A stretch of 64,000 nt of DNA. It comes from Minisyncoccota bacterium (GTDB taxonomy: Bacteria > Patescibacteriota > Minisyncoccia > Phycocordibacterales > UBA2100). The notes below the pieces were generated by a model. That model searched no databases, had not been told where the DNA came from, and worked only from the letters and a program-made list of their open reading frames with translations. The stretch lies in contig DATJXE010000003.1 in NCBI GenBank assembly GCA_035500505.1, forward strand, positions 201,697 through 265,696, in the 5' to 3' direction. Positions 2,380 to 59,974 of this stretch are shown one piece after another (the stretch's first letter is position 1; each line of letters starts with the position of its first letter). Made by a program: the position numbers and the translations under genes.

Positions 2380-2458
2380 CGAATGCGGCACAGCAAATTC
2401 ATTGTCTGTGAGACTTTCGCACAACATTCTCGACAATGAATTTGCTGTGCCGCATTCG
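2380..2458. repeat. Perfect 27-bp inverted repeat (arms 2380-2406 and 2432-2458, 25-nt loop)
   Basis: cgaatgcggcacagcaaattcattgtc ... gacaatgaatttgctgtgccgcattcg, read directly. It starts 9 nt after a stop codon and lies upstream of the tpiA promoter. Confidence 0.85.
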
Positions 2459-2468
2459 AGACGTCCCA

Positions 2469-2487
2469 TGCTACAATTCTGCAAATG
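2469..2487 (+). promoter_or_regulatory. Extended -10 (TGCTACAAT) 7 nt upstream of tpiA ATG (leaderless-type promoter)
   Basis: TGCTACAAT-tctgcaa-ATG. The same architecture recurs at several other genes in the window. Confidence 0.45.
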
Positions 2488-10399: not shown

Positions 10400-10876
10400 T
10401 TACATCGTCCGCTGCGGCATCGATACGCCGATCGAAGATTGCGGCATGTTCGAAGTCTTGCGGTTCATTAGCCAGCCGATGACAACGCCCGGCACGATCC
10501 AGTAGCCGAAGAGAACTGCCGTCGTCCAGCTCCAGAGGAAGGGCCCGAAGTTCGGAAGGACGCTCATGAGCGTCGAAAAGGAAGCGGTCTGGACCAAAAC
10601 GCCCGAGACGCCGGTCACGAACGCGGTCACGATGGATACGACGAAGCCGATGATGCCGAACCAAATGCCGGCTTTGAGAGCCATTGAAGGGGACACCGTC
10701 TTCAAGTACCACCAGGTCATGATGGCGATGAGGACTGCCGCCACCACGATAAAGGTGGCGTACTGGACCGTAAAGGTGCCCGTGCCGGCAGGAACGAACG
10801 CCGCAATGGCAGCGACGACGTTATTGACCAGGTAGTTACCCAAAAACGCGATTAAAATGGCTCGTTCGATTTTCAT
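10400..10876 (-). CDS. Hypothetical membrane protein
   Basis: Four or more TM helices. Start chosen at MKIER to avoid overlap with the SOD gene. Confidence 0.4.
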   Translation of the reverse strand: MKIERAILIAFLGNYLVNNVVAAIAAFVPAGTGTFTVQYATFIVVAAVLIAIMTWWYLKTVSPSMALKAGIWFGIIGFVVSIVTAFVTGVSGVLVQTASFSTLMSVLPNFGPFLWSWTTAVLFGYWIVPGVVIGWLMNRKTSNMPQSSIGVSMPQRTM

Positions 10877-14383: not shown

Positions 14384-14413
14384 TCCCCGTCGGGGATTTT
14401 TAGTTGAAACATG
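14384..14413 (+). promoter_or_regulatory. GC hairpin + U5 immediately upstream of rpsL start
   Basis: tcccc-gtc-gggga-ttttt ends 9 nt before the ATG. It could occlude an SD-like GGGGA. Confidence 0.3.
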
Positions 14414-14827
14414 GCCACAATAAACCAACTCACCCGCAAAGGCCGCACGGCCCGCCGCGGCAAGGACAAGACCATCGCGCTCTCGCGTGGCTTTAACACG
14501 CTCAAAAATCGCCCCACCTTCTATTCCTCGCCCTTCAAGCGCGGCGTCTGCACCCAGGTAACGACGAAAACCCCCCGCAAACCGAACTCCGCCATCCGCA
14601 AGATCGCGCGTGTTCGTCTCACCAACGGCATGGAGATTACCGCTTACATTCCGGGCGAAGGACACAACTTGCAAGAACACTCGGTCGTGTTGGTGCGCGG
14701 TGGGCGCGTGAAGGACATCGGTATCCGCTACACCATCGTGCGCGGCAAACTCGACACTGCCGGCATCGACAAGCGCCGTCGCGGCCGCTCGCTCTATGGC
14801 GCGAAGAAACCGAAGGGGGAGAAATAA
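14411..14827 (+). CDS. rpsL: 30S ribosomal protein S12
   Basis: '[12 protein letters not shown]', '[31 protein letters not shown]'. Carries a ~14-aa insertion and a C-terminal extension. Confidence 0.9.
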
Positions 14828-37982: not shown

Positions 37983-38429
37983 ATGCAGAGAGTTTCTCTC
38001 CGGACGTTCGCTTTCCCGCTGGCCCTTGCGGTTGCGATAGTTTCGGCAAGCGCGGCGTTTGCGTATGCGCAGACCACAACCGACGCGCAACTTCGCGCGA
38101 CCATCCAGGCCGAAGTGACGGCCGATCCGCGTTCGCAAACGATGTCGCAGGCGCAGATACAAGCGCTTGTCGACTCGCTCACCGCCCAGGCACAGGCGCA
38201 AGGCCTCACGGCTTCGCAGCTCACCTATCGTGCGCCCACCCAAACTCCGGAGACTTCCTTGCCCGCGCCGAGTTCGCAGTGCACGACGTTCTCCTGTTCG
38301 CTCGCCCGCGCGTTCGGGCTCGACGGCTCCGTTCCCATCATCCCCATTGCGCTTTTTGTGGCGGCGGCACTCTTCATTCTTCTTTTCAGCATCATGCGCG
38401 AGTTAGGGCATCCGCACGCACAGGCTTAG
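37983..38429 (+). CDS. Hypothetical secreted protein with C-terminal TM anchor
   Basis: Signal 'AFPLALAVAIVSASAAFAYA'. C-terminal 'IIPIALFVAAALFILLF'. Confidence 0.4.
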   Translation: MQRVSLRTFAFPLALAVAIVSASAAFAYAQTTTDAQLRATIQAEVTADPRSQTMSQAQIQALVDSLTAQAQAQGLTASQLTYRAPTQTPETSLPAPSSQCTTFSCSLARAFGLDGSVPIIPIALFVAAALFILLFSIMRELGHPHAQA

Positions 38430-38434
38430 AGCGT

Positions 38435-38562
38435 GCGGCGAAGCAGCATGAGTTTTTGAATATCTCGGCTTTGCCACCGTTCTCTTTCTCTGTGCCGGAC
38501 TCTGCCGCAAGAAAACCATTTTGGAAAAATGTGGTAAACAAAAACTCATGCTGCTTCGCCGC
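38435..38562. repeat. Perfect 24-bp inverted repeat (arms 38435-38458, 38539-38562; 80-nt spacer)
   Basis: gcggcgaagcagcatgagtttttg / caaaaactcatgctgcttcgccgc. It starts 6 nt after a stop codon, upstream of the rplC operon. Confidence 0.85.
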
Positions 38563-38639
38563 ATAGCGGCATAGTTGCACGCCTTCTTTTTTCGTATATA
38601 GTGCTTCCACCCAAGTCCGTATATGGACCAATGGTGAGC

Positions 38640-38682
38640 TTCAAAAGCCCGCCATTGCGGGCGTTCACATTTTTAGGATATG
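38640..38682 (+). promoter_or_regulatory. Leader hairpin + U-tract + SD before rplC
   Basis: gcccgc-cattg-gcgggc-gttcacattttt-AGGAT-ATG. Confidence 0.35.
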
Positions 38683-41214: not shown

Positions 41215-41250
41215 AACAAAAGCCCGGCAATGCGCCGGGCTTTTTCGTTT
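41213..41250. terminator. Bidirectional rho-independent terminator after rplB
   Basis: aaaacaaaa-gcccggc-aatgc-gccgggc-tttttcgttt. Confidence 0.7.
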
Positions 41251-41263
41251 GCCGTGGTCTAGT

Positions 41264-41674
41264 TCAGGGAAGTTCCGCGATGTGAAAGTCAGGAAGCTCC
41301 CGCTTGAAGACCCCTAGGGTAATTTTCCGTTCCGATTCACGAACAATGTCCGGGCTTTCCCCTTGCAGGAAGATACACCTCGTCCCATAGGGCATGTAGG
41401 TGAGCTCCCCGCCGCCAAGCATTTCGAACTCGAGCGGCTGAACTTCGGTCTTGAAATTGTGAAGGACTTGCCCGACCAGGACGTTTCGAGCCGCTACACG
41501 GATAACGATCCGCTCCGTACCGCGTCCGTCGTTTACCTTGAAGACGACGTATCGATAGATCCTTTTTTCGGTCAGTACATTGCCGTTCAACAGCCTCAAA
41601 TCCAGAGCACAAGCCATGGAAGCCTCCCGATTAAACTCAACTTCCACCATAACCCGAAAAGTATTACTACACAA
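41264..41674 (-). CDS. Hypothetical protein encoded antisense within the ribosomal protein cluster
   Basis: 136-aa ORF between rplB and rpsS, with no motif. Flanked by the terminator and the rpsS promoter. Confidence 0.35.
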   Translation of the reverse strand: MCSNTFRVMVEVEFNREASMACALDLRLLNGNVLTEKRIYRYVVFKVNDGRGTERIVIRVAARNVLVGQVLHNFKTEVQPLEFEMLGGGELTYMPYGTRCIFLQGESPDIVRESERKITLGVFKRELPDFHIAELP

Positions 41675-41728
41675 TAATCTCGACGACCTGCAACAGGACC
41701 TCGATTTTTTCTAGGATTCTCGTGGAAA

Positions 41729-41796
41729 TTTGACGTACCAAAGTCTATCCTATATATTGTGCCAACGCCGTGCAGGCGTTTTTGTTTGAAGATATG
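41729..41796 (+). promoter_or_regulatory. rpsS promoter (TTGACG-16/18-TATATT) with 5' hairpin aacgcc-gtgca-ggcgtt + U-tract ending 8 nt before ATG
   Basis: Read directly. The hairpin 6-mers aacgcc/ggcgtt are identical to those before fusA. Confidence 0.45.
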
Positions 41797-58963: not shown

Positions 58964-59247
58964 GTATGCAGTACCTGCACCAGTCGACCTACGGCCATGC
59001 AGGAGGACTTCACATCGCAAAGCCCATCATGGCGATGGACAAGGGGCATATCTACGACATTAAGGACGGACGTCCCGATCTTTCGAAGCCCCTGTATCGT
59101 GTGCAGGAAGGGAAGGCGTATGCGACCGAGCACCATCCAAGCGGCCCCTCGGTGCATGCGATGTTCGAGATAAAAGGCGACAAAGTGCACACGACGCAAT
59201 TCCACCCCGCACACAACCCTTCTTCGCACGTCTTTGAAATTAAGTAG
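58960..59247 (+). CDS. Hypothetical His-rich small protein
   Basis: 95-aa ORF (GTG/ATG start). Weak support. Confidence 0.25.
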   Translation: MSMQYLHQSTYGHAGGLHIAKPIMAMDKGHIYDIKDGRPDLSKPLYRVQEGKAYATEHHPSGPSVHAMFEIKGDKVHTTQFHPAHNPSSHVFEIK

Positions 59248-59249
59248 GA

Positions 59250-59388
59250 GGCAGAGGTGCGGGTGTGTTGTTTCTCGAACTCCTTACTCATCTCGGCTTC
59301 AACGCATATCACCACTGCAAAAAATACCCTCGGTAATCCGAACGTGTCGCGCGCGATGTTCGCTAAACAACACACCCGCACCTCTGCC
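59250..59388. repeat. Perfect 24-bp inverted repeat (arms 59250-59273, 59365-59388; 91-nt spacer)
   Basis: ggcagaggtgcgggtgtgttgttt / aaacaacacacccgcacctctgcc. Starts 3 nt after a stop codon. Its loop shares ATCTCGGCTT with the 38.4-kb IR loop. Confidence 0.85.
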
Positions 59389-59567
59389 GTACACTTCCTA
59401 CTTCCTCTACATGCGTTCTTAATTTTGTGGGTGTATACTTCCATGTAGCGGCTGGTACTTAAACCTGCTTGGTAGAAGTACGGGATTCTCATATTGCTGC
59501 GGACTATTGTTTGCATGCTGCGGAAACCCACCTGGTCTCTAAGCCCAGGCTTGCCGTACCCGCCGCA

Positions 59568-59600
59568 CCAAAAAACCCGCCGATAAGGCGGGTTTTTTGG
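59568..59600. terminator. Bidirectional rho-independent terminator
   Basis: aaaaaacccgcc-gataa-ggcgggtttttt. Confidence 0.75.
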
Positions 59601-59974
59601 TGTACGATACGGCGATGCGAGCATTCACGGCGCAGGCGGTCATATTCATCCTCATCGCTGTTCTCTACTTCTATTTTGGATTTCACGAACGGTATCTTTT
59701 CACGATCTGGTGGTGGGACATCCCGCTGCACATTCTCGGCGGACTTTGGGTCGCGTTGGCCGGCACGTGGTTCTTCGGACTGTTCGGCATACGAGTCCGT
59801 CCCATGCAGGCGATAGCGCTGGCATTTTCTGTGGGAGTCGCGTGGGAACTATTCGAATACCTTTTCGGTATCGGCGGTTCGTTGTTCATGAGCTATCCTG
59901 TCGACACGGCGAAAGACCTCTTCGACGACGTTCTGGGGGGCGCGGTCGGCGCGCTTCTCCTCGGATACCTATGA
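59597..59974 (+). CDS. Hypothetical membrane protein
   Basis: 3-4 TM, Trp-rich ('TIWWWDIPLHILGGLWVALAGTWFF'). Confidence 0.4.
   Translation: MVYDTAMRAFTAQAVIFILIAVLYFYFGFHERYLFTIWWWDIPLHILGGLWVALAGTWFFGLFGIRVRPMQAIALAFSVGVAWELFEYLFGIGGSLFMSYPVDTAKDLFDDVLGGAVGALLLGYL

Follow-up and report, generated by a model that had tools for sequence, protein, structure and literature searches.

What are long, perfect inverted repeats doing directly behind the genes of a compact bacterial genome? Three of them lie in the window, by which we mean the whole stretch of 64,000 nucleotides analysed here, and the earlier note that drew attention to them read them as a structured RNA family or as a protein-bound processing or termination element, with MITE-like relics as the alternative. 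We suggest that elements 1-3 are probably small (79-162 bp), gene-less insertion elements, similar to MITEs and to the Rickettsia palindromic elements (RPEs), whose arms evolve in concert. On the best reading they are native to Kaiserbacteria-type Parcubacteria (CPR), and each has a core specific to its family between two long arms that are complementary to each other. By its ribosomal protein L3 and its gene order, the window belongs to a Kaiserbacteria-like member of that group.

Sequence reading and an independent repeat search gave the same arms, complementary at 27/27 positions in element 1, 25/25 in element 2 and 24/24 in element 3. All three repeats are thus as perfect as had been claimed, the one correction being that the arms of element 2 measure 25 bp (38434-38563) rather than 24. 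The total sizes are 79 bp for element 1, 130 bp for element 2 and 139-162 bp for element 3, and the parts are arranged as follows.

2380-2406, no strand assigned: element 1, left arm, 27 bp, perfect; it starts 8 nt past the TAA (2369-2371) of a 99-aa ORF.
2407-2431, plus strand: element 1, 25-nt core or loop of family B, GAGACTTTCGCACAACATTCTC, with a 21/22 match to the loop of the same-site element in L129.
2432-2458, no strand assigned: element 1, right arm, 10 nt before the tpiA extended -10 TGcTACAAT (2469-2477).
38434-38458, no strand assigned: element 2, left arm, 25 bp, perfect; it starts 4 nt past the TAG at 38427-38429.
38459-38538, no strand assigned: element 2, spacer of 80 nt for which no homologue could be detected, folding at the level of shuffles.
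38539-38563, no strand assigned: element 2, right arm, 11 nt 5' of the rplC promoter, TTGCAC (38575-38580)-16-TATAGT (38597-38602).
59242-59249, no strand assigned: element 3, outer left arm, AAGTAGGA, which holds the last codon and the stop of a 95-aa ORF.
59250-59280, no strand assigned: element 3, left arm, 24 bp perfect (59250-59273) and 31 nt at 94%.
59281-59357, minus strand: element 3, family-A core, with the consensus orientation on the minus strand and identity to two L091 elements.
59358-59388, no strand assigned: element 3, right arm, the perfect 24 bp being 59365-59388; the spacer is 91 nt.
59396-59403, no strand assigned: element 3, outer right arm, TCCTACTT, pairing with 59242-59249 over 8 bp across a 7-nt bulge.

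By our own arithmetic (64000 x 400 x 4^-24), about 1e-7 perfect inverted repeats of at least 24 bp within 400 nt are expected by chance in 64 kb, and the three fold far better than shuffled sequences (z = -9.4, -6.4 and -9.9 for elements 1, 2 and 3). Although the sequence is a metagenome assembly, and might for that reason harbor artefacts, both flanks are syntenic with relatives, homologous elements are present in independent metagenomes, and a second assembly of the source genome (locus L171) equals the window at 10,667/10,667 overlapping bases and carries an identical element 1. Two metagenome proteins, P0121 and P0257, are likewise 100% identical to window proteins. It is therefore scarcely credible that the repeats arose by chance or through faulty assembly.

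All three repeats sit in the same kind of place. The upstream plus-strand stop codons end at 2371, 38429 and 59247, and the perfect arms begin 8, 4 and 2 nt on, a closeness that the earlier note had reported correctly, as it had the absence of a U-tract from all three; the outer arm of element 3 even overlaps the stop codon of the upstream ORF. No T-tract was found 3' of elements 1-3, and a terminator scan found nothing at these sites. On the other side, promoters that are conserved in relatives adjoin every element, those of tpiA (element 1), rplC (element 2) and a small-RNA gene (element 3). The arms of the three elements are mutually unrelated, as had also been observed, and a search of the window and of about 1.4 Mb of relatives' loci (numbered with an L below) found no further copy of any arm.

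The adjoining loci have features of their own. At tpiA, in the window (2469-2485) and in all relatives, the extended -10 TGcTACAAT ends 7 nt before the ATG with no obvious -35, and this short distance suggests that the tpiA mRNA is leaderless, or nearly so, clade-wide. The rplC promoter, TTGCAC-16-TATAGT, is followed (window 38575-38679) by a strongly conserved leader, CCAAGTCCGTATATGGACCAATGGTGAGCTT..AAAGCCCGCCATTGCGGGCGTT, which is common to L081-L083 and partly to L084 and L086 and is a candidate ribosomal-protein autoregulatory leader; rplC here has no preceding rpsJ. The 148-aa neighbour of element 2 had no relatives in the first metagenome scan. Farther downstream (window 41215-41769) the ribosomal cluster is broken behind rplB, where a terminator (41218-41244) and some 550 nt with an opposite-strand ORF (41264-41674) intervene; one to four small unannotated minus-strand ORFs occupy the same post-rplB place in L081 (2861-4020) and L084 (12587-13649), and such ORFs also occur between rplE and rpsN. 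Beside element 3, at window 59416-59605, lies the gene of a structured small RNA, conserved and about 120 nt long; its promoter block, TTCTTAATTTTGTGGGTGTATACT, is conserved too, and its bidirectional terminator measures 16 bp. Its orthologues lie at L088 4945-5098, L089 6424-6575 and L090 7530-7685, and the gene has a closing stem, several conserved loops, some compensatory changes and no Rfam match. The 98-nt tRNA-Phe that ARAGORN placed elsewhere in the window, at 14476-14573 (minus strand), where it shares bases with the start of the rpsL ORF (14411-14827), is probably a false call.

Relatives hold the same gaps both with and without an element. In L083, the relative with the most similar L3 (91% identity), 16 nt separate the stop codon at the rplC site from the same -35 TTGCAC; in the window the stop codon is followed by 4 nt, the 130-nt element 2, 11 nt and then the -35. 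The element is likewise missing in L084 and L086, and L082 carries instead 126 nt of unrelated sequence that forms no hairpin; as a candidate homologue of element 2 it was rejected (p = 0.11 forward and 0.03 reverse, not significant). At the ndk site, L088, which belongs to the same genome as L083, runs from the stop codon through 9 nt to the conserved small-RNA promoter, and the window has some 160 extra nt and a shortened upstream ORF whose stop lies inside element 3. Since the relatives' proteins end in VFEIRNGL* or FEIRHGA* and that of the window in VFEIK*, element 3 has replaced the final codons of the upstream gene, with its outer arm supplying the new stop. The tpiA site is empty in L092, L094, L108 and L111 (stop codon, 9-14 nt, then TACAAT) and filled in the window, L129, L091, L109 and L096, and in L114 it holds an 11-base family-A word, GATGAGTAAGG. 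The elements have been inserted, or at least are variably present, between close relatives.

No target-site duplication was seen in the empty-site comparisons at rplC (L083) and ndk (L088), nor in at least 10 elements inspected; the flanks of element 2 offer one doubtful pair, TAG(A)GCG / TAGCGG. Target-site repeats of MITEs are known to fade with age (PMC10969869). The idea that the arms are copies of the target site could be ruled out, as the empty sites consist of 9-16 nt only and bear no likeness to the arms.

Similar unique, long, perfect repeats were found, within the first set of 80 loci, only in Patescibacteria loci, including ribosomal-protein operons, and in other Parcubacteria elements lie between rplW and rplB. 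In L023 (9569-9747) a run of 133 N falls exactly between 23-bp perfect arms, with a second, 19-bp pair outside, a pattern due either to masking or to a gap that the repeat left in the assembly.

Kinship among these elements is found in their cores. On the minus strand, the element 3 core aligns with L091 3843-3939, upstream of tpiA, at 82% identity over 97 nt (E = 1.8e-19), and with L091 1384-1481, 2.4 kb from the first L091 copy, at 77% (E = 9.7e-15); the spacer similarities to the two copies have z = 42 and 30, and with nhmmer the core of element 3 scores E = 1e-33 for this family, called A. With respect to the genes, both L091 copies have the opposite orientation to element 3. Weak members or remnants of family A occur in L109, in L102 (a 14-mer at the same offset) and in L114 (GATGAGTAAGG). 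Family B consists of element 1 and the element at the same site in L129, whose TpiA is 78% identical; their spacers are similar at z = 15, the loop GAGACTTTCGCACAACATYCTC is identical at 21/22 positions, 7/9 bases agree in the outer arm, and the inner arm is otherwise unrelated. Family D unites elements in L096 (upstream of tpiA), L016 (after rplB) and L005, with z = 7-11.5. The families are small, with three clear and two to three weak copies in A, two in B and three in D, and the assignments rest on 2-5 copies each.

The cores of families A and D recur at unrelated loci, and that of family A does so in either orientation. Copy number seems low, the 74 kb available of the source genome containing one element per type, and the copies are old, their 70-82% identity giving no sign of a recent burst. 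A search of a phage collection found no copies of elements 2 and 3, and the arms had no matches in IMG/VR viral contigs; two core patterns gave one chance match, in an AT-rich phage gene.

A 10-mer common to elements 2 and 3 had been taken as a sign that these two belong together. The word, ATCTCGGCTT, is exact at 38462-38471 and 59290-59299, with no third exact copy in the window, but its weight is small. The local alignment of spacer 2 with spacer 3 has p = 0.014 against shuffles as one of six comparisons (p about 0.005-0.014 for the shared word), words of 8-11 bases are common to unrelated elements at about the chance rate (15 elements), and loop words across 15-23 elements are at chance level except within families A, B and D. 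The 10-mer is close to chance level. Nor does element 2 have a clear relative in the window or in the approximately 1.4 Mb of loci, its links being the 10-mer with element 3 and an arm 9-mer with L102. A covariance model, which had been proposed as a check, was built for family A; it recovered the three known copies and added a new weak copy in L109 (E 0.005) and a weak match in L114, but it aligned element 2 by its generic stem only, so that kinship between elements 2 and 3 is not demonstrated.

The earlier picture of different stems around a conserved loop is nevertheless real; it holds through the homologues in L129 and L091 rather than through that 10-mer. Within families a conserved core is combined with arms that vary and yet match: 19/58 predicted pairs have changed on both sides between copies of family A, and 10/25 in family B, and arm length varies among copies equally on either side. 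What the copies within families A and B share is the core and no more than about 9-11 nt of outer arm; beyond that their arms are unrelated. In relatives the arms are again fully Watson-Crick (26/26 in L091, 25/25 plus a nested 17/17 in L092, 19/19 in L170), and perfect arms of 24-27 bp extend to as much as 33 nt at 91-94%. As we read the arm sequences, left arms have a GC-rich outer end and a T-run beside the core, and an inner GAAC...GTTC boundary can be seen by eye in element 3, both L091 copies, L109, L102, L092 and L170. The conserved small RNA of the same clade and its terminator show G-U pairs, one-sided changes and broken pairs.

The cores themselves have no detectable structure or coding content. 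They fold no better than shuffles on either strand; Rfam gave no match at gathering thresholds in the whole window, and in E-value mode at two sites only generic hairpin and terminator matches far below threshold. An open minus-strand frame spans element 3, and one 55-aa frame translated from its core had no homologue among 1.84 billion protein representatives; moreover, family-A copies differ by an indel that changes the reading frame, so that no frame is conserved. On these two grounds a protein-gene fragment was rejected as the origin of the core.

In relatives elements also occur inside a gene. A family-A copy in L091 (1361-1504) follows the ninth codon of a prepilin gene, in frame and free of stops. 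The same place in the leader holds an in-frame element with 25-bp arms, a 92-nt spacer and a nested 17-bp perfect hairpin in L092 (1453-1594), and in L170 (443-480) a spacerless, perfect 38-bp palindrome, likewise in frame, which has GAAC|GTTC at its centre and arms that, judged by eye, are similar to those of L091. Of the prepilin homologues listed, the other 117/120 measure 143-230 aa, against 260 and 263, and leaders of 4-16 residues were seen in 9/10 N-termini read, the tenth, P0243 (L170), having 28. In-frame coding insertion was seen only in these relatives (L091, L092, L170); the window copies are intergenic, with element 3 replacing the last codons of an ORF.

Could the elements be selected, cis-acting RNA hairpins, acting as terminators that lack a U-tract, as RNase III sites or as 3'-end stabilisers, in which the stem has only to pair and the loop is recognised? 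Their very stable folds, placed right past stop codons and before strong promoters (tpiA, rplC, the small-RNA gene), would fit such a role, as would compensatory stem changes around conserved loops and a tpiA-upstream gap that is filled in at least five lineages; palindromic repeats such as Correia and ERIC can be cut by RNases when present in mRNAs (PMC10969869). However, the nearest relatives without elements keep the same promoters, and because the core occurs in both orientations with respect to transcription, the loop RNA would differ among copies. One copy is translated, within the L091 prepilin leader, and in other Parcubacteria the rplW-rplB gap is filled, where termination would be harmful. 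The loops of 25-91 nt, the unstructured cores and the missing U-tract are also unlike the ordinary terminators that are present elsewhere in the window, which have an A-tract, a GC stem of 11-16 bp, a loop of 0-6 nt and a T-tract, and perfect Watson-Crick arms exceed what an RNA function needs. Selected RNA hairpins are thus an unlikely explanation, which keeps its weight mainly because the element 1/L129 pair could be a single old insertion whose loop has been retained by selection, and hence have a function. The structured RNA family, or protein-bound processing or termination element, of the earlier note fares badly on the same evidence: the elements are absent in relatives, occur in both orientations and once as coding sequence, and have unstructured cores and no Rfam match.

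Inverted repeats that bound a short segment immediately 5' of a promoter also recall invertons, whose arms are recombination sites and whose spacer flips to turn the neighbouring promoter on or off. The family-A core is indeed known in both orientations, though at different loci and not at one locus, and the two assemblies are identical over element 1, the 25-nt spacer of which is too short to invert. Recombination that depends on RecA has a minimum arm length near 24-27 bp, which is the length of the arms here, and the run of N between the repeat arms of L023 could reflect an assembly problem; but the arms have no common sequence, so no single invertase could recognise them all. Promoter and terminator scans found nothing at or within elements 2 and 3 and no promoter-like site in the spacers, and the real promoters lie outside and are kept in element-free relatives. 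We regard inversion as very improbable.

A different possibility is that no mobile element is involved and that the palindromes are made on site, by a mutational process (fold-back or template-switch errors, quasipalindrome correction) of unusual activity in these repair-poor genomes. This would account for arms that are perfect and unique to their locus, for the lack of target duplications and conserved termini, and for forms such as the spacerless 38-bp palindrome of L170 and the 17-bp hairpin nested in the 25-bp one of L092; template switching can create hairpins and make them perfect (PMC5453318, PMC8794818). It leaves unexplained, however, why two genomes have homologous 95-nt cores at three loci that are unrelated (E 1e-19) and why family D occurs in three lineages; compared with empty sites, the net gain amounts to all of the 130-160 nt and not to one arm. 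Purely local generation is accordingly quite doubtful as the full account, but as a part of the preferred one, local template switching probably contributes to the perfection of the arms.

With small palindromic insertion elements as the preferred explanation, their position and their arms can be placed in one scheme. The gap of 9-16 nt between stop codon and promoter would be almost the sole slot in which an insertion of about 130 bp is tolerated, and the elements would adjoin stop codons because compact genomes accept such insertions almost only there. Arm perfection may be kept by DNA-level copying from arm to arm, either through hairpin-templated repair (template switching) or through the regeneration of one arm from the other on movement; RNA-level selection is an unlikely cause, because the functional RNA hairpins of the same genomes accommodate G-U pairs and mismatches. 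If transcription of the upstream gene ran into an element, the 3' end of the mRNA would fold into a perfect duplex of 24-33 bp, which might stop exonucleases, serve as a target of RNase III or impede transcription that reads on into the next promoter. Such effects on the mRNA we infer to be a side effect, not the reason for the elements' existence.

Some observations count against this scheme in its simplest form. There are no target-site duplications at the two empty-site loci, and the termini are not conserved, unlike the usual repeats recognised by transposases. Inspection by eye of the first 70 residues of each protein predicted in the window revealed no transposase, and Pfam scans covered ten proteins beside the elements. 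Different elements recur at the same two or three sites, which could point to site-specific capture or local generation as opposed to ordinary transposition.

These properties raise a more speculative version of the insertion reading, to which we attach a low probability: a class of hairpin-based mobile DNA unlike known MITEs, in which the conserved core, with its GAAC...GTTC boundary in many copies, would be recognised, much as loops are in HUH or rolling-hairpin systems, and one arm re-synthesised from the other at each move or repair. Re-synthesis of this kind would mirror arm changes at once and leave arms that are unique to each copy yet complementary, with no target duplications. As a variant, the core may travel as cargo and enter palindromes that already exist, at their centre, in which case L170 would represent a site that is empty or has been emptied.

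Little has been written on the mobile DNA of CPR bacteria, and a full-text search found a single paper in which MITEs and these organisms are named together, in passing. The elements described here indicate that tiny, streamlined genomes still host insertions, even in ribosomal-protein operons and a prepilin leader, and that these occupy the sole permissive gaps, from stop codon to promoter. Their conserved core and matched hypervariable arms are the reverse of ordinary transposon ends, and they offer a clean natural system for the study of concerted hairpin-arm evolution (template switching) or of a new way of moving DNA. They also carry a warning, since they mimic covarying structured RNAs and may mislead the prediction of RNA motifs and terminators in metagenome-assembled genomes.

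How do the elements compare with known systems? Intrinsic terminators share the hairpin directly past a stop codon, but the elements have no U-tract, have loops of 25-91 nt instead of 3-8 nt and are absent in relatives. Integron attC sites were set aside by eye: the inner GAAC...GTTC of family A departs from the consensus RYYYAAC...GTTRRRY, lies inside the stem and not at its base, and has housekeeping neighbours. Likeness to retrons and hammerheads was set aside by eye or on Rfam evidence.

REP and REPIN sequences, which depend on RAYT transposases, are likewise intergenic hairpin repeats just past genes with no target duplication. In REPINs, however, the arms are conserved and recognised and the loop is free, whereas here the roles are reversed and there is no GTAG head; tested for this pattern, the arms proved unrelated between copies, with no shared head. 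Repeats that do follow the REP/REPIN pattern, with GTAG heads and similar arms, were seen just upstream of tpiA in the gut-metagenome loci L127 (3763-3915) and L164 (3808-3916), and a GTAG-headed, REPIN-like repeat lies well downstream of the tpiA match in L128 (4942-5019), from an unrelated gut bacterium.

In HUH origins and nick sites a conserved loop with a free, complementary stem is the hallmark, and movement leaves no target duplications. The stem-loops of rolling-circle plasmids, circular ssDNA viruses such as geminiviruses, and IS91/IS200 relatives resemble the present elements in this conserved loop and varying stem, a likeness of pattern only; the loops here are 22-95 nt long, not about 9-12 nt, and no HUH protein was found.

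The RPEs are palindromes of roughly 100-150 bp that form several families in a small, reduced genome, which is much what is seen here. Copies of an RPE are, as far as is known, alike over their whole length, and the arms here are hypervariable; all three window copies are intergenic, and a kinship in sequence with RPEs is not expected. RPEs also lie in frame within genes and are translated (PMC10969869), for which the prepilin leaders of L091, L092 and L170 provide the counterpart.

The prokaryotic MITEs, such as Correia of Neisseria, QMITE of Coxiella and ERIC, are alike in being under 500 bp, gene-less and bounded by inverted-repeat ends of 24-33 bp (PMC10969869). They are alike, too, in their intergenic, co-transcribed place, in the very stable hairpins predicted for their transcripts and in forming multi-locus families of variable presence (PMC10969869). 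Of the features by which MITEs are recognised, the elements have small size with no transposase gene, terminal repeats (about 4-30 bp) and, element 2 excepted, related copies at several loci with variable presence. They differ in that their ends are unconserved and the core is conserved, in having no target-site duplications, in not being AT-rich, in their low copy number in the 74 kb read and in having no known parent insertion sequence. The alternative of the earlier note was therefore the one closer to the evidence in calling the repeats MITE-like, but they are intact elements and not relics, and with conserved termini and target duplications both missing, they are better described as a variant than as a plain MITE.
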